DNA from: Kayfunavirus T147P5
DNA: 40,209 bases
Sequence record: OZ035809.1
Direction: 5' to 3' (one strand)
Made by a program: the position numbers and the translations under genes
Notes under the pieces: model-generated
Told to the model about the DNA's origin: nothing
The model's input: only the letters and a program-made list of their open reading frames with translations
Database searches by the model: none
Shown: in pieces, positions 3,392-16,498 of the stretch
How positions within the stretch are numbered: the stretch's first letter is position 1
Layout: each line of letters starts with the position of its first letter

Positions 3392-3460
3392 CGCAATCAT
3401 GGTAACGATTCATGAGCGGAAGACCTAAGGTCAGTACGTGGATAAAGACTCACTCTACTG

Positions 3461-3599
3461 ACCTTAGCTACTGTAGTCAAGGACTTTAGGTAACACCATT
3501 CAGGCTCTCACCTCTGGTCTACCTACTGATTGGTTCACTGGTCGTCATCCGATGGTCTTAGACCTACGGTCCTTGACCTACAGTAGCTGGTTCCTAAGG
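3461..3599. repeat. imperfect inverted repeat (about 24-bp arms, about 85-bp spacer) just left of the presumed terminal repeat
   Basis: Left arm ACCTTAGCTACTGTAGTCAAGGAC (3461-3484) vs right arm GTCCTTGACCTACAGTAGCTGGT (3569-3591), reverse-complementary with one indel and one mismatch. Confidence 0.5.
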
Positions 3600-3637
3600 A
3601 GGGACGATGAGTTTTGGACCAAAAGTTTGAGACCACA

Positions 3638-3826
3638 TCTCACAGTTCAAGAACCTCAAGTCTCCCCATAGGCCATCTTTCAGTCCAGACCAAAGGCCCT
3701 ACCCCAGTCTATCATAAGGTTAGACCGATGGTCAAGACTTCAGGTCAACGATAGGTTGTGGCTATGGCTTAGGGAAGGACGATAGGTAGGGACTATGGGT
3801 CTGTCTTTGAGTCTCTATCTGTATCA
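3638..3826. repeat. probable direct terminal repeat (single collapsed copy) containing the physical genome ends
   Basis: Begins TCTCACAGTTCAAGAACCTCAAGTCTCCCCATAGG, closely resembling the first bases of the T7 genome (recalled); 246 bp downstream of gene 19.5; end near CTATCTGTATCAG is approximate. Confidence 0.45.
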
Positions 3827-3910
3827 GACCATAAGTCACTAACCTACAGTCTCACTAACCTACAGTCTCAACCATAAGACACCAACACCTACAGTCATAG
3901 ACCTACAGTT
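3827..3910. repeat. short direct-repeat array (ACCTACAGT units)
   Basis: ACCTACAGT at 3842, 3858, 3887, 3901 with tandem 16-bp CTCACTAACCTACAGT x2; analogous to the CCTAAAG-type arrays after the T7 terminal repeat. Confidence 0.5.
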
Positions 3911-4020
3911 ACTAGACACAAAGCTATAGACTTAAGGTCTAAGACATGTTAGTCAAAGACTATATCCTCTTACACCATGGGGCCGACGATAGCTTAATCA
4001 ATATTATTTCAAATTACCTA

Positions 4021-4049
4021 TTGACTATAGGTCCAGACTATGGCCTAAT
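4021..4049 (+). promoter_or_regulatory. candidate host sigma70 early promoter (T7 A1-like)
   Basis: -35 TTGACT (4021-4026), 17-bp spacer, -10 CCTAAT/CTAATA (4044-4050); resembles T7 A1 architecture (TTGACT-17-GATACT). Confidence 0.45.
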
Positions 4050-4161
4050 AGCTTACGTCAACACGACACGGCAACAACCGGATAGTGAAGACGCCGGGTC
4101 ATCCCGGTTAAGTAGACAGCCTGATAAGTCATACGAAAAACAGGCAGATGACAGAAAGTAG

Positions 4162-4191
4162 TTGACAAGCAGTAACGATAAGATGTAAGCT
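4162..4191 (+). promoter_or_regulatory. A2/A3-like promoter remnant (TTGACA ... TAAGAT) with non-canonical spacing
   Basis: TTGACA 4162-4167 and TAAGAT 4179-4184 separated by only 11 bp; alternative -10 TAAGCT at 18 bp is weak. Confidence 0.25.
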
Positions 4192-4306
4192 GTACCACAT
4201 CGAAACAACGGTGACGACCGACACTGAAACGGTCTACCTGAAGTCCTCTGACTGAAGGGAATGCTCTTTAACAATCTGGATAAACTCTTAATGTGCGCCG
4301 ATAGCG

Positions 4307-4378
4307 ACTAACTACAGGGTCTTTGAGTCTACATCTGAAGGCCCTGGCTGATAGTCACTAACTTAACGGATGGACACT
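4307..4378 (+). promoter_or_regulatory. conserved early intergenic element E1 (probable RNA processing/regulatory site)
   Basis: GACTAACTACAGGG...GGCCCTGGCTGATAGTCACTAAC; diverged copy of E2/E3; immediately precedes first early ORF. Confidence 0.4.
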
Positions 4379-4624
4379 ATGAAACACTTAAGCACAATCA
4401 CTAATCACAATGAAGTATTCGTGAACACTAAAGGTTATGCGTGGATTCAGCTTAAAGAGATGAGAGGAGCGCGTCACCGTGTGGTAGTTCGCAAGGTATC
4501 AAGCAAGCCGTTCAGCAACTACAGCGTAGATATTGTGCGTATAGACAACGAGACTTACCTGATAGACTCGCAGATAACCGTGAGTCCTACAGCGGGCATC
4601 TCAGCTCCTTATTTCGCTAACTGA
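4370..4624 (+). CDS. hypothetical early protein
   Basis: 84-aa ORF; alternative start ATG 4379 fits the RBS spacing seen for E2/E3; first gene after the host-promoter region. Confidence 0.6.
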   Translation: MDTMKHLSTITNHNEVFVNTKGYAWIQLKEMRGARHRVVVRKVSSKPFSNYSVDIVRIDNETYLIDSQITVSPTAGISAPYFAN

Positions 4625-4627
4625 GAG

Positions 4628-4697
4628 TGATTAACTACAGGTCGTTAGAATCATAGCGGCCTGACTGATAGTCACTAGCAACCTAAGAGGATTCATT
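4628..4697 (+). promoter_or_regulatory. conserved early intergenic element E2
   Basis: TGATTAACTACAGGTCGTTAGAATCATAGCGGCCTGACTGATAGTCACTAGC; about 90 percent identical to E3; fills the intergenic gap; RBS AAGAGGA follows. Confidence 0.4.
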
Positions 4698-4976
4698 ATG
4701 AGACTGAACAAAGCTACAGCAGAAGCCTTCCGCAAGGAGCTTGAATCAAGATTATTGTGTGGAGTGGCGGAAGGAGCCGCTCGATATAAAGAGAATGGTC
4801 TAACGTTCAAGCGCTTTATGTGGGATTGCTATCACGGAGTGGGCCATAAAAAGTCGCAGGAAATAATCACCAGCAACAATGCGGAAGTGCAAGTGATAGG
4901 AGGATACATGGCTAACGTGAAGGATTCACACATAGAGACAATGCTTAAGAATGCACTTAAAGATGTAGCCTACTAG
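4698..4976 (+). CDS. hypothetical early protein
   Basis: 92-aa ORF with RBS AAGAGGA; no recognisable motif. Confidence 0.65.
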   Translation: MRLNKATAEAFRKELESRLLCGVAEGAARYKENGLTFKRFMWDCYHGVGHKKSQEIITSNNAEVQVIGGYMANVKDSHIETMLKNALKDVAY

Positions 4977-5046
4977 TGATTAACTACAGGTCGTTAGACT
5001 GATAGCGGCCTGACTGATAGTCACTAACAACTGAGAGGATATAACT
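4977..5046 (+). promoter_or_regulatory. conserved early intergenic element E3
   Basis: TGATTAACTACAGGTCGTTAGACTGATAGCGGCCTGACTGATAGTCACTAACAAC; contains short hairpin TGACT-GAT-AGTCA; precedes ocr-like gene. Confidence 0.4.
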
Positions 5047-5550
5047 ATGGAACGTAACGCTAACGCATACTATGAGCTGCTGGCTGCAACCGTTGAGGCA
5101 TTTATCGAGCGTATTCAGTACGACCACCTGACTCAAGATGATGACTACAGCGATGCGCTGCATGAGGTCGTAGACGGTCAGGTTCCACACTATTACCACG
5201 AGATTTTTACGGTGATGGCTGCTGATGGTATAGACCACGAGTTCGAAGACTCTGGGCTGATGCCTGAAACCAAGGACGTAACGCGTATACTACAAGCTCG
5301 CATCTATGAGGCGCTTTATAACGATGTGTCTAATAGCTTGGATGTAGTCTGGTTTGAGGCTGAAGAGGCAGACGAAGAGGATGAATATTGGGTAGTTGAC
5401 GCTAAAACAGGCGCAATAATTGTGCAAGCTGTAGCTCTTGAGGTCGCTACTGCATGTGCCAATGTCAACTATGCAACAGGTCGCCACCTGAAGGTGGAAG
5501 ACATCAATGATAACGTAGTGTTCGACCCTGCGGCTGAGGACTGCGAGTGA
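5047..5550 (+). CDS. ocr: Ocr-like DNA-mimic anti-restriction protein (T7 gp0.3-like) with about 54-aa C-terminal extension
   Basis: [43 protein letters not shown] nearly identical to T7 Ocr core; acidic stretch [10 protein letters not shown]; 167 aa versus 117 aa in T7. Confidence 0.8.
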
Positions 5551-5705
5551 TGGTAACTTATGGTATCTGCCAGCACCACGTCGCAAACGCCCGGCTTATG
5601 GTCAAGACCGGGCAATTAAACCACGATGCGACTATGCGTCACCTGAAAGCGGTCTATGAGGGCCGCAAGCGCATACACGACAGTTTGCACGCTGAGGATA
5701 AGTAA
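5550..5705 (+). CDS. small early protein at the position of T7 gene 0.4
   Basis: Not in ORF track (51 aa); ATG overlaps ocr stop (TGATG); ..TMRHLKAVYEGRKRI.. loosely resembles T7 gp0.4 as recalled. Confidence 0.45.
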   Translation: MVTYGICQHHVANARLMVKTGQLNHDATMRHLKAVYEGRKRIHDSLHAEDK

Positions 5706-5818
5706 CGTGTATCATAGCCTGACCATAACGCTGACAGGCGGGTACTGAGTGATAGACGAGAGGTCATCGACTGATAGGTGGCCTCAAAGATTACCACTTG
5801 AATTAATAGGAGTTAACT

Positions 5819-5908
5819 ATGAGTGTGGGATATTGGGTCTGCCTAGCGCCAGTTATCTGGATGATAGGCTATGGGTTATACGACTGTATTAAACGGAAAT
5901 CACTATGA
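5819..5908 (+). CDS. small hydrophobic peptide (29 aa)
   Basis: RBS AGGAG 5808-5812; MSVGYWVCLAPVIWMIGYGLYDCIKRKSL; stop overlaps next ATG. Confidence 0.3.
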   Translation: MSVGYWVCLAPVIWMIGYGLYDCIKRKSL

Positions 5909-6102
5909 GTCTTGCACTATTGATAGCCATAGGCTATGGACTTATCGCCTACGTGCTGATGAGAGACATCTACAAAGCGCGTAAAGTCTACAAATTCAAC
6001 TATGTACGTCTGGGCCGCTGGACTGTACGTCAACCTAACGGACGATTCATGCGCAACCTAGCGAACGTCTGGGATATAGCAACACTTGGGAGCAAACTGT
6101 AA
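5905..6102 (+). CDS. small membrane protein
   Basis: 65-aa ORF with N-terminal TM segment LALLIAIGYGLIAYVLM; translationally coupled to the flanking ORFs. Confidence 0.5.
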   Translation: MSLALLIAIGYGLIAYVLMRDIYKARKVYKFNYVRLGRWTVRQPNGRFMRNLANVWDIATLGSKL

Positions 6103-6428
6103 TGAACAAGTCATACGGGATTAATCTGGTACACTCTATGGACGCAGACATGCAAATGTTAAGCCTACTTGCTACCGGGTATCGTCACGGAACGTCAAGT
6201 CACACCGCACGTCAACAGCAGGAGCGGGACCGGGTACTGCAAGCAAGACTCCGGGCTGAGGGCCATAAGTCCGAGCTGATGTGTCTGGCGTATGGTGGAC
6301 GACCAATCACTGACGATGGTAAACTTTTAGTCTCAGGCTGGAAGGCGATAGACCAACGGTCAACCATCAAGCACACGACTCATGGTGACTTCAGTCATCT
6401 TCACGCTAACCCACTGATATGCAAGTGA
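6102..6428 (+). CDS. hypothetical early protein
   Basis: 108-aa ORF occupying the slot where T7 has gene 0.7; no kinase motifs. Confidence 0.6.
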   Translation: MNKSYGINLVHSMDADMQMLSLLATGYRHGTSSHTARQQQERDRVLQARLRAEGHKSELMCLAYGGRPITDDGKLLVSGWKAIDQRSTIKHTTHGDFSHLHANPLICK

Positions 6429-6433
6429 TTCTG

Positions 6434-6456
6434 ACTTAACTATCACTATAGGACTC
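6434..6456 (+). promoter_or_regulatory. phage RNAP promoter immediately upstream of the RNAP gene
   Basis: ACTTAACTATCACTATAGGACTC; full consensus match; leader 6457-6525 contains direct repeats (AAGTGAAAGAC x2, GACTTTAAGT x2). Confidence 0.75.
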
Positions 6457-6525
6457 AAGGTCTAAGACTCCAAGTGAAAGACCAAAGAGACTTTAAGTGA
6501 AAGACTAATAACAAGGACTTTAAGT

Positions 6526-9207
6526 ATGAGCGTCATCTCTATTGACAAACACGACTTCTCTGATGTGTCGAACGCCATTGAGCCGTTTAACCTGCTGGCT
6601 GACCACTACGGGCAAGACCTTGCAGTCAAACAGCTTCAGCTTGAGCATGAGGCATACACTGAAGGCGAGCGACGTTTCATCAAGAACCTTGAGCGGCAGA
6701 CTGAGCGAGGGGAACTGGCAGACAATCAGGTCGCCAAGCCTTTGATGCAGACTCTGGTTCCTAAGATTGCGCAAGCCGTCAAGGAGTGGCATGAAGGTCC
6801 AGACGGGAAGCTGTCAACCTCTCGTCCGAGCGTAGCGTTCACCATGTTAAGCACTGAAGAGAAGGCCGTCAAGGACCGCTCTCTTCGCATCTCCTGCGAG
6901 TCTGCTGCGGTTATCATACTGAAGGTCATCCTCTCCAAGCTGGTCAAGCCTGAAGGTATACCGATTACACCGATGGCCTCCGCGATAGGTCGCACACTTG
7001 AGGATGAAATCCGATTCGGTCGCATTCGTGACAAGGAGAAGGAGCACTTCAAGAAGGCAATAGCTGATAACCTGAACAAGAGAGCCGGGGCATCATACAA
7101 GAAAGCCTACATGCAAGCGGTCGAGACATCCATGCTGGAGCAAGGCCAACTAGAAGATGCGTGGGGAACTTGGAGTCCGACCGAGGCTGTCCACGTTGGA
7201 ATCAAGATGCTGGAGATTGTCATCCAGTCAACACAACTGGTCGAGCTTAAGCGTTATGGTGCTGGCAATGCAGCGGCTGACGTTGAGATGGTCCACCTGT
7301 CAGACTTCTGGGTCAAGAAGATGGCACAACGCGGCTTCAGCCTTGCGGGCATCGCTCCAGTCTACCAACCTTGCGTAGTTCCACCTAAGCCGTGGACTGG
7401 TGTCGTAGGCGGTGGGTACTGGGCCAAAGGTCGCAGACCATTACCACTGATTCGCTTAGGGTCTAAGTCTGCGGTGGCACGTTACGAAGACGTGTATATG
7501 CCTGAAGTCTATGACGCTGTTAACATCATCCAGAATACACCTTGGAAAGTGAACAAGAAGGTTCTGGACGTGGTGAACATGGTCGAGAAGTTGAACAACA
7601 CGCCTATTGATGACATCCCTCAGATGGAGCCACTGAAGCCTGAAGAATATGCGGGTGAGACTGAAGAGGAACTCAAGGCGTGGAAGAAAGCGGCTGCTGG
7701 TATCTATCGCCGCGAGAAGGCCAGACAGTCACGCAGGTTGTCGCTGAGCTTTATCGTTAACCAAGCGAACAAGTTCTCTCAGTTCAAGGCCATCTGGTTC
7801 CCGTATAACATGGACTGGCGCGGTCGCGTCTACGCTGTGCCGATGTTCAACCCTCAGGGTAACGACATGCAAAAGGGTCTCCTGACTCTGGCAGTCGGTA
7901 AGCCTATTGGTGCTGATGGTTTCAAATGGCTGAAGGTCCACGGTGCAAACTGTGCGGGTGTCGATAAAGTCACCTTCGAGGAGCGCATCAAGTGGGTGGA
8001 AGATAACCACGACAACATCATGGCTACCGCTAAGGCACCGATGGACAGCATTGAGTGGTGGGGTAAGTTAGACTCTCCGTTCTGCTTCCTAGCGTTCTGC
8101 TTCGAGTATGCTGGCGTAATGCACCACGGTTTGTCTTACTCCTGCTCGCTGCCGATAGCTTTCGATGGGTCCTGCTCTGGGATTCAGCACTTCAGCGCGA
8201 TGCTTCGTGATCACATCGGTGGACATGCAGTAAACCTGACGCCTTCCGGTAAGGTCCAAGACATCTACCGCATCGTGTCTGACCGCATTGAGGAGGAGCT
8301 TAAAGTCCTGCTGGTTAATGGCACGGACAACGAGGGGGTCACTAACGAGGATAAGAAAACTGGCGAGATTACCGAACGTATCAAGCTGGGGACACGAGAG
8401 CTGGCCCGCCAGTGGCTGACTTACGGTATGTCACGCAAGGTTACTAAGCGCTCAGTCATGACTCTGGCCTATGGGTCGAAAGAGTACGGCTTTGCAGACC
8501 AAGTTTACGAGGACATCGTGATGCCAGCGATTGACTCAGGGTCTGGCGCTATGTTCACTGAACCAAGCCAAGCGTCTCGCTTCATGGCTAAGATGATTTG
8601 GGAAGCTGTGAGTGTGACCGTAGTTGCTGCAGTTGACGCGATGAAGTGGCTTCAAGGTGCTGCCAAGCTGCTGGCGGCTGAAGTGAAGGACAAGAAGACT
8701 GGAGAAATCCTGAAGCCTTGCCTTCCGGTACACTGGGTCACACCTGATGGGTTCCCGGTCTGGCAGGAATACCGCAAGAAGGATACCACTCGTCTGAACC
8801 TGATGTTCTTAGGGTCATTCAACCTTCAGCCTACCGTCAACAAAGGCACGAAGAAGGAGTTGGATAAGCACAAGCAGGAGTCAGGAATTAGCCCGAACTT
8901 CGTCCACTCACAAGATGGTAGCCATCTCCGCAAGACTGTAGTCCACACTCACCGCAAGTATGGCGTGATGTCATTCGCAGTGATTCACGATAGCTTCGGG
9001 ACCATCCCGGCTGACGCTGAGTATCTGTTCCGGGGTGTCCGTGAGACGATGGTCGAGACCTACCGCGACAACGATGTGCTGCTTGACTTCTACGAGCAGT
9101 TTGAATACCAACTTCATGAGAGCCAGCGCGACAAGTTGCCTGAGCTTCCGAAGAAAGGTAAACTGAATATTGAGGACATTCTATCTTCAGACTTTGCATT
9201 CGCTTAA
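6526..9207 (+). CDS. DNA-directed RNA polymerase, single-subunit (T7 gp1-like)
   Basis: 893 aa; collinear with T7 RNAP (DFSD...PFN.LADHYG, FQPCVVPPKPWTG, WFPYNMDWRGRVYAV, FCFLAFCFEYAG, HDSFGT, C-terminal FAFA). Confidence 0.97.
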   Translation: MSVISIDKHDFSDVSNAIEPFNLLADHYGQDLAVKQLQLEHEAYTEGERRFIKNLERQTERGELADNQVAKPLMQTLVPKIAQAVKEWHEGPDGKLSTSRPSVAFTMLSTEEKAVKDRSLRISCESAAVIILKVILSKLVKPEGIPITPMASAIGRTLEDEIRFGRIRDKEKEHFKKAIADNLNKRAGASYKKAYMQAVETSMLEQGQLEDAWGTWSPTEAVHVGIKMLEIVIQSTQLVELKRYGAGNAAADVEMVHLSDFWVKKMAQRGFSLAGIAPVYQPCVVPPKPWTGVVGGGYWAKGRRPLPLIRLGSKSAVARYEDVYMPEVYDAVNIIQNTPWKVNKKVLDVVNMVEKLNNTPIDDIPQMEPLKPEEYAGETEEELKAWKKAAAGIYRREKARQSRRLSLSFIVNQANKFSQFKAIWFPYNMDWRGRVYAVPMFNPQGNDMQKGLLTLAVGKPIGADGFKWLKVHGANCAGVDKVTFEERIKWVEDNHDNIMATAKAPMDSIEWWGKLDSPFCFLAFCFEYAGVMHHGLSYSCSLPIAFDGSCSGIQHFSAMLRDHIGGHAVNLTPSGKVQDIYRIVSDRIEEELKVLLVNGTDNEGVTNEDKKTGEITERIKLGTRELARQWLTYGMSRKVTKRSVMTLAYGSKEYGFADQVYEDIVMPAIDSGSGAMFTEPSQASRFMAKMIWEAVSVTVVAAVDAMKWLQGAAKLLAAEVKDKKTGEILKPCLPVHWVTPDGFPVWQEYRKKDTTRLNLMFLGSFNLQPTVNKGTKKELDKHKQESGISPNFVHSQDGSHLRKTVVHTHRKYGVMSFAVIHDSFGTIPADAEYLFRGVRETMVETYRDNDVLLDFYEQFEYQLHESQRDKLPELPKKGKLNIEDILSSDFAFA

Positions 9208-9500: not shown

Positions 9501-9523
9501 CTAAACTATCACTATAGGATTAG
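9501..9523 (+). promoter_or_regulatory. phage RNAP promoter (phi1.1-like)
   Basis: CTAAACTATCACTATAGGATTAG; +1 about 9518. Confidence 0.8.
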
Positions 9524-9565
9524 ACTAAAGGTCATGACTCAAAGTCGTGGCCTTCATGATTAACC
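9519..9565 (+). promoter_or_regulatory. RNase III-site-like hairpin (analogous position to T7 R1.1)
   Basis: Same inner stem AAGGUCA(9528-9534)/UGGCCUU(9548-9554) as the elements at 296 and 16436. Confidence 0.45.
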
Positions 9566-9595
9566 CTAAATAAACACTACTGGAGATTTAACCGT

Positions 9596-16234: not shown

Positions 16235-16435
16235 GTGCGATTGGAAGTCACCATACGGAGGACACCATTAGTGTTTAAGAAACTTAAAGCTCGCTACCAT
16301 CGGTTCATGTACAAATGGTGGAGTGACGAAGCAACCTGCCTGTCCAACATTCTGGGAGACCAAAGGTTCAACTCTGCGGCATGGAAGAAAGCTAACCGGA
16401 AGTTCATGTATCACTTCTTGCGTACAGACTTCTAG
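16235..16435 (+). CDS. hypothetical small protein
   Basis: ORF-track GTG start at 16235; a better-supported start is GTG 16271 (RBS GGAGGA 16255-16260, 10-nt spacer); basic, Trp-rich. Confidence 0.4.
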   Translation: MRLEVTIRRTPLVFKKLKARYHRFMYKWWSDEATCLSNILGDQRFNSAAWKKANRKFMYHFLRTDF

Positions 16436-16481
16436 GTCTAGACTCAAGGTCATTCACATCGAGTGGCCTTTATGATTAGAC
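16436..16481 (+). promoter_or_regulatory. RNase III-site-like hairpin (analogous to T7 R4.7 region)
   Basis: Inner stem AAGGUCA(16446-16452)/UGGCCUU(16464-16470) identical to the copy at 296; outer stem GUCUA/UAGAC differs but stays complementary. Confidence 0.5.
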
Positions 16482-16498
16482 TAAACGGAGGATTAACC

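Follow-up and report, generated by a model that had tools for sequence, protein, structure and literature searches.

Three probable RNase III processing hairpins at early-gene junctions upstream of ocr in a K1F-like Kayfunavirus genome

The early precursor RNA of bacteriophage T7, ~7 kb in length, is cut co-transcriptionally by ribonuclease III (RNase III) in five places to give mono- and dicistronic mRNAs, and this processing matters for the optimal translation of some messages (PMC4858673). Ten RNase III sites occur in T7 (PMC6938266). Internal loops confine the enzyme to one cut, so that the product keeps a protective 3' hairpin, and antideterminant proximal and distal boxes have been defined on variants of the R1.1 site (PMC1540722). 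Other Autographiviridae also carry T7-like RNase III sites, and these can form hairpins in single-stranded DNA (PMC11707656). Here, we describe three repeated elements, E1 to E3, upstream of the gene 0.3 homologue, ocr, of Kayfunavirus T147P5 (OZ035809.1). The window analyzed (40,209 nt) is the whole genome of this K1F-like phage (Studiervirinae, T7 group) in circularly permuted form. On homology and structure, E1 to E3 very probably act as RNase III processing signals, carried by the polycistronic early message that is transcribed by host RNA polymerase from the genome's left end.

The positions of the terminase gene (1167-2936), the genome-end-type repeats (~3400-3900), ocr (5047-5550), and the T7-type RNA polymerase gene (6526-9207) place E1 to E3 upstream of gene 0.3, in the early region that the host polymerase transcribes. 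All three are on the transcribed strand, with the early promoter region on one side and ocr on the other; the surrounding 1.9-kb stretch has ~95% identity with numerous Kayfunavirus phages of Escherichia. A repeat search returned a three-member family, CCTG[GA]CTGATAGTCACTA[AG]C, at 4343, 4660, and 5009, which bears out the three related elements of the original prediction. The 18-nt core CCTGRCTGATAGTCACTA occurs at these same positions, three times in the window and always on the + strand (0.06 occurrences expected; a count of 3 was reached in 0/100 shuffles). E2 (4626-4682) and E3 (4975-5031) are 95% identical over 57 nt, slightly more than the ~90% first estimated. E1 has TAACTACAGG and CCTGGCTGATAGTCACTAAC in common with them and differs in its upper stem and loop, which are 6 nt longer. 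The hairpin cores themselves span 4302-4360 (E1, the first RNase III-type hairpin of the early transcript), 4626-4676 (E2, an internal-type hairpin at the junction of open reading frames [ORFs] ORF84 and ORF92), and 4974-5026 (E3, of internal type, at the ORF92/ocr junction), all on the + strand; the longer intervals first proposed also take in the leader of the following gene with its Shine-Dalgarno sequence. Every hairpin lies at or over the stop codon of its upstream ORF, and the ORF92 stop codon (TAG, 4974-4976) falls within the base of E3. A ribosome-binding site (RBS) and start codon had been placed behind each element. This holds for all three: AGAGGA is the Shine-Dalgarno sequence ahead of ATG 4698 and ATG 5047, and behind E1 the likelier start is at 4379 rather than 4370, since ATG 4370 lies inside the probable Shine-Dalgarno sequence GGATGG (4367-4372). 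Annotation of these hairpins was not found in any Kayfunavirus record inspected, so they can enter annotation together with their predicted cut sites.

The + strand RNA of each element forms one hairpin of ~51 to 59 nt, composed of a lower stem of 8 to 9 bp (AGUGAUUA/UAGUCACU), an asymmetric internal loop (ACUA/ACUGA), and an upper stem of 10 to 12 bp (CAGGUCGUUA/UAGCGGCCUG) capped by a 6- to 7-nt loop. Fold energies on this strand are -25 (E1), -25.5 (E2), and -24.5 kcal/mol (E3), with z scores of -2.8, -4.3, and -3.4, compared to -2.1, +0.6, and -0.2 on the minus strand; the minus strands of E2 and E3 thus fold no better than shuffled sequences. Lower stem, asymmetric internal loop, and upper stem are also the architecture of T7 R0.3, R0.5, R1, and R1.1, which share with E1 to E3 the blocks ACUxAxGGUC, GGCCUx, and UGAUxxUCACU and which likewise lie in host-transcribed early mRNA, on the same strand, directly before gene 0.3 (ocr) and neighboring small genes. 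E1 aligns to T7 848-908 and is the homologue of R0.3 in both position and sequence, with the upstream leader CTCTTTAACAATCTGG common to both; GACTAGCGGATAACTCAAGGG...CCCTTTATGATATTCACTAATAAC in T7 R0.3 corresponds to CGATAGCGACTAACTACAGGG...CCCTGGCTGATAGTCACTAAC in E1. E2 and E3 align with R0.5 and R1 as ACU[AC]A[AG]GGUC...GGCCU[GU]...UGAU..UCACU, and the CAGG/CCUG base of the upper stem is the same in the R1 site. In comparison with T7, the locus has three hairpins upstream of ocr rather than one, the two internal-type copies are 95% identical whereas the T7 sites are mutually diverged, and the 3' strand of the internal loop reads (A/G)CUGA instead of UUAUGA.

Folding and covariation with relatives, which the original prediction had put forward as a check, recovered a conserved two-helix hairpin. 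RNAalifold of six sequences (E1 to E3 with T7 R0.3, R0.5, and R1) gave 19 pairs, 10 of which carried compensatory changes. A covariance model (R1) built from these six seeds scored E1, E2, and E3 at 64.5, 72, and 74 bits and recovered T7 R1.1, a non-seed site, at 45 bits (E value of 1e-7). Applied to 17 early regions of relatives, the model found 57 sites, all on the transcribed (+) strand. In the alignment of these 57 sites, 95.7% of cells form standard pairs, compared to 31 to 44% with partners slid, and both-side changes occur at 15 of the 19 pairs; the observed values were reached in 0/500 shuffles. The window itself holds seven matches (three seeds and four non-seed sites), all on the + strand, with the non-seed sites all intergenic and at T7-like positions. 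Pairs frequently alternate with G-U, for which the other strand would carry C-A mismatches. The abundance of such G-U pairs makes the structure strand specific and therefore indicates selection on the + strand RNA.

Strand specificity bears directly on whether the elements act as DNA. Inverted repeats upstream of genes could be sites for a regulator (operators), promoters, or terminators, and the 3' arm, GATAGTCACTAAC, is loosely like the phage promoter core ATCACTATAGG. However, the DNA palindrome has its imperfections at precisely those positions that form G-U pairs in the + strand RNA, the minus strand scores 9 to 14 bits with the covariance model against 64 to 74 bits for the + strand at E1 to E3, and the minus strands of E2 and E3 do not fold. 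We consider a role as operator, promoter, or terminator extremely unlikely, and the regulator binding sites named as one option in the original prediction are set aside. Three specific candidates of this kind were also searched for and rejected. The phage promoter consensus TTAACTATCACTATAGGAC (ending TATAGGA) matches at 10 places in the window, all of them outside 4300-5050; no sigma-70 promoter was found at the elements, with a regional count of 6 versus 4.9 ± 2.0 in shuffles; and no terminator-like match was found at the elements, where the hairpins are followed by CACUAAC... and no U-tract.

In register with the T7 cut UUUAU^GAU, cleavage is predicted after U4349 in E1 (CCCUGGCU^GAUAG), U4666 in E2 (GGCCUGACU^GAUAG), and U5015 in E3. 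The T7 early sites used for this register were reportedly placed at coordinates 890, 1468, and 3138 by Dunn & Studier in 1983. The distance from the loop to the predicted cut on the 3' strand of E2 and E3 is 13 nt (UAGCGGCCUGACU^G). We take the corresponding count in R1.1 (GAGUGGCCUUUAU^G) to be 13 nt as well. In the proposed mechanism, host RNase III would make a single cut on the 3' side of each internal loop, the hairpin would stay on the 3' end of the upstream message and shield it from 3' exonucleases, and the downstream message would begin GAUAGUCACUAAC..., with an unstructured leader of ~30 nt that carries the Shine-Dalgarno sequence. A single cut, a protective 3' hairpin, and a free leader lead us to propose that ORF84, ORF92, and ocr would be expressed from separate stable monocistronic mRNAs. 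The three leaders downstream of the predicted cuts are essentially unstructured (-3.8, -3.2, and -1.7 kcal/mol; z scores of -0.5, +1.3, and +1.5 versus shuffled sequences).

It is possible that the hairpins stabilize RNA or control translation independently of RNase III, as barriers to 3' exonucleases or by sequestering the RBS, and are not cut sites. Their placement at or over upstream stop codons would suit such a role, as would the predicted base of the hairpin, which in folds of the uncut RNA may extend as far as the Shine-Dalgarno region, and so would the growth of T7 without RNase III (PMC6938266). This explanation has to contend, however, with base-for-base homology to T7 sites of experimentally demonstrated cleavage, a homology that extends to the internal-loop sequence at which the cut falls, and with a two-helix and internal-loop geometry whose form and length are conserved beyond what a merely stable hairpin needs; we regard it as quite unlikely. 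E1 to E3 belong to the T7-group family of RNase III sites by position, structure, sequence, and covariation and are of the textbook kind, with cleavage inferred by homology. The processing-site option of the original prediction is supported by homology to R0.3, R0.5, and R1, by a strand-specific two-helix hairpin and its covariation, and by recovery of the non-seed R1.1 and of four more sites in the window.

Comparison of relatives indicates that the same hairpins bound units of gene exchange. Among 412 matching phage records, 10 cover at least 80% of 4250-5100. Both the window and phage 22664UKE3-2 have the order hairpin-ORF84-hairpin-ORF92-hairpin-ocr, and Vec13 has the two ORFs reversed (hairpin-ORF92-hairpin-ORF84-hairpin-ocr). 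Only ORF84 is present in K1F, LM33_P1, and 1RS, only ORF92 in Hafnia phage yong1, and neither in CR44b; GA2A and EcL30g carry a different ORF of 58 aa, and U8 and GA2A encode a 174-aa protein in place of ocr. Outside the genus, EG1 (Teseptimavirus) and phiYe-F10 (Teetrevirus) have ORF92 downstream of genes 0.3-0.4 with a hairpin on either side, and a metagenomic contig (L027) has it, likewise between hairpins, upstream of an S-adenosylmethionine (SAM) lyase. In Klebsiella phage Kpn16-P3, hairpins enclose ORF84 ahead of a SAM lyase-type gene. A scan of IMG/VR for the hairpin 3' arm returned 5 contigs only. The early genes behave as hairpin-bounded cassettes: comparison shows their gain and loss, changes in their order, and their movement from one genus of T7-like phages to another.

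The same type of hairpin is found at every internal junction in the relatives, and its flanks indicate where exchange took place. The 5' flank always tracks the upstream gene (e.g., ...ttatttcgctaaCTGAGAGTGATTAAC after ORF84), and the 3' flank with the RBS always tracks the downstream gene (e.g., CACTAACTTaacggatggacactATG before ORF84 and CACTAACAAcctaagaggattcattATG before ORF92). Crossovers therefore fall inside the hairpin, which would act as a recombination joint, and since the hairpin is near-identical at every junction, it may serve as a homology patch. In the late 1970s, T7 early-region deletions were reportedly found to end in short repeats, RNase III sites among them. In phiYe-F10, ORF92 has on its downstream side a hairpin of the Kayfunavirus internal type with an RBS of the Kayfunavirus ocr type behind it, while the upstream hairpin is of the T3/T7 type, which indicates that the ORF92 cassette was transferred together with its 3' hairpin. 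Synonymous divergence (dS) between the window and Vec13 is 0.039 for ORF84 but 0.231 for ORF92; these adjacent cassettes differ in history, and the region is mosaic.

Three side observations concern records of these relatives. In LS2 (MN518894.2), the ORF84/ORF92 hairpin (1016-1080) has many G-to-C changes that abolish pairing, and the model misses the site; an error in the deposited sequence, not a biological change, seems to be the cause. In the K1F record (NC_007456), an ORF84 homologue at 776-1030 is unannotated between hairpins at 704-770 and 1027-1087. Short ocr genes of 110 to 114 aa lie behind the same hairpin in Vec13, LS2, and CR44b.

Such junctions might also suggest that the repeats are primarily DNA-level signals for recombination or mobility, marking the boundaries of mobile gene cassettes, with the RNA structure incidental. 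Whether cassettes were gained, lost, swapped in order, or transferred between genera, the junctions are inside the repeats, and an identity of 95% between E2 and E3 within one genome is expected under gene conversion. Yet the compensatory changes and one-strand-only G-U pairs show selection on RNA, the hairpin family is also present at non-variable positions (after gp18, the RNA polymerase gene, and gp4), and the repeats have no associated recombinase or integrase. ORF84, moreover, travels without these hairpins in 150-kb Phapecoctavirus genomes, where a sigma-70-like promoter of its own and a small GC hairpin precede it; the covariance model found no T7-type hairpin in the Phapecoctavirus genomes that carry ORF84, so the gene can move without one. 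We consider a primarily DNA-level role very unlikely. With E1 to E3 read as RNase III processing signals, a broader proposal can be made only tentatively, and we think it somewhat more likely to be wrong than right: the hairpins may be shared crossover points of an exchange network extending across Studiervirinae, the exchanged units may be leader-RBS-ORF-hairpin, ORF84 and ORF92 may be host-takeover or anti-defense proteins circulating in it, and the uniformity of the hairpins (95% between E2 and E3) may be kept in part because it promotes acquisition.

Several points weigh against the processing and recombination roles proposed here. E1 to E3 are seeds of the covariance model, so high scores for them are built in. 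Fitting the covariation alignment to the model favors the structure, and the aligned sequences are related to one another. An Rfam scan of 3400-6600, with E values up to 1, returned no family, so there is no independent curated model for these sites. The cut sites were set by register with T7 coordinates attributed to Dunn & Studier (1983), which the RefSeq T7 record does not list. The first hairpin of Hafnia phage yong1 has its 5' arm deleted, so the sites are not strictly essential, and the enzyme itself is dispensable for T7, as noted above. An R1-type hairpin directly before gene 1 was not found by the covariance model in the window. Unlike T7, in which the gp0.7 kinase stimulates RNase III (PMC4858673), the genome has no gp0.7-type protein kinase between ocr and the RNA polymerase gene (5550-6526), and cleavage here is predicted. 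The recombination role, finally, was inferred from junction patterns in ~20 genomes and not from a genome-wide breakpoint statistic.

Two small genes are introduced by E1 and E2. ORF84 (4379-4624, + strand; 81 aa, or 84 aa from ATG 4370) belongs to phrog_10124 (1.6e-39), and ORF92 (4698-4976, + strand; 92 aa) belongs to phrog_9817 (7.5e-27), both families of unassigned function. ORF84 more probably starts at ATG 4379 (MKHL...) than at ATG 4370, GGATGG at 4367-4372 then being its Shine-Dalgarno sequence; 20 of the 42 listed homologue clusters have 81 aa, and the homologue in Phapecoctavirus phiWec181, read at the sequence level, starts MKHL. ORF92 has 31 homologue clusters and, like those of ORF84, they are mostly on phage contigs of ~40 kb. 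These families and clusters mean that the two ORFs, originally called orphans, are not orphans. The absence of recognizable motifs noted at the same time does hold: neither protein had a match in Pfam, NCBIfam, or PDB sequences, and a profile search with ORF92 found ~30 small unannotated proteins and nothing else. Their assignment to the early neighborhood of host-takeover and anti-defense genes is correct by position. A literature search with peptide strings of both proteins found no paper.

Structure prediction, also proposed originally, yielded models of both proteins and no assignment of function. The AlphaFold2 model of ORF84 is all-beta with six strands (predicted local distance difference test [pLDDT] score of 77), and that of ORF92 is mostly helical, with a pLDDT of 90.8 in one of five models only. 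Foldseek of both models against the PDB gave no match below an E value of 0.7 and no meaningful neighbor. ORF84 has a nonsynonymous divergence (dN) of 0.25 to 0.28, with saturated dS, relative to its Klebsiella-phage and Phapecoctavirus homologues, and ORF92 has dN/dS of 0.10 to 0.22. Both are thus under purifying selection, and both are real early genes. One candidate function was rejected. A distant relative of ORF92 has a weak match to the Pfam S-AdoMet_lyase family (E value of 8.5e-4), and profile-profile comparison with three phage SAM lyases gave a probability of 0.6%.

The gene downstream of E3, ocr (5047-5550, + strand), is of the long K1F type, with 167 aa. It matches Pfam PF08684 over residues 8-94 (E value of 3.5e-30; 104.9 bits against a cutoff of 25) and phrog_2568 (3.4e-54), and its C-terminal ~60 aa beyond the Pfam domain are without assignment. 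A phage promoter at 6436-6454 stands before gene 1, in place of an R1-type hairpin. Upstream of E1, a putative gene of 71 aa (3946-4161, + strand; phrog_30192; "gp0.1 of K1F" in LM33_P1) overlaps the presumed early promoter region. Near the left end of the genome, 3541-3909 contains a family of CCTACAGT-type repeats, with a perfect 16-bp tandem repeat (TCACTAACCTACAGTC, two copies) at 3836-3867, and these repeats have the words TCACTAAC and CTACAG in common with both arms of the RNase III hairpins.

The four non-seed hairpins in the window are all on the + strand. One follows the 0.4-like ORF (5547-5705) at 5745-5803, the position of T7 R0.5 (38.2 bits; E value of 2.3e-6). A second, at 9511-9572, has the RNA polymerase gene on its 5' side and a 59-aa ORF on its 3' side (43 bits; 1.8e-7), immediately behind a phage promoter (9502-9520), which is the phi1.1A/R1.1 arrangement of T7. 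The third is 3' of the 566-aa gp4-like ORF at 16429-16487, a position like that of T7 R4.7 (40.3 bits; 7.6e-7), and the fourth is after the gp18-like ORF (30-293) at 290-349, a position like that of T7 R18.5 (46.5 bits; 3e-8). Directly after this last hairpin, between the gp18-like ORF and the 18.5-like region, is a 134-aa ORF (355-759, + strand) with an HNH-like motif, VIDHIDRNTLNNELSNLR, which looks like an inserted homing endonuclease.

The arrangement at E1 to E3 recalls mobile regulatory cassettes in larger phages. Promoter-early stem-loop (PeSL) cassettes of T4-type phages, reportedly described by Arbiol et al. in 2010, are said to consist of a sigma-70 early promoter and a small stem-loop. 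Both systems have repeated intergenic regulatory sequences that flank small unassigned early genes at junctions of modular shuffling. E1 to E3, in contrast, have no promoter and are RNA-processing hairpins within one long transcript. A PeSL-like arrangement (TTGACA...TAAGAT with a GC hairpin) does flank the ORF84 homologue in Phapecoctavirus phiWec181, where, at 1400-1830, each small gene near that homologue is preceded by TTGACA-N17/18-TAAGAT/TATAGT and a GGGCGGC...GCCGCC hairpin in a PeSL-like array.

The hairpins may also be a liability as DNA. Palindromes of T7 RNase III sites trigger the Lamassu DdmABC defense in Vibrio cholerae at the DNA level (PMC11707656). E1 to E3 are of the same palindrome family and are present in three tandem copies, whereas the known effect is a DNA-level one in V. 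cholerae. Because tandem palindromes of this family trigger the defense, additional hairpin copies could come at a price.

The elements themselves are ordinary, and the added interest is modest, coming from the cassette-joint pattern and from two conserved early proteins of unassigned function. For T7-like phages, the hairpins mark variable early-gene slots upstream of ocr, where accessory genes are kept. A covariance-model scan for the hairpin would be a simple way to enumerate cassettes across genomes and may supply candidates, such as ORF84 and ORF92, for screens of anti-defense and host-takeover functions. In this locus, a regulatory RNA element may double as a recombination joint, and the case is concrete enough to be tested.

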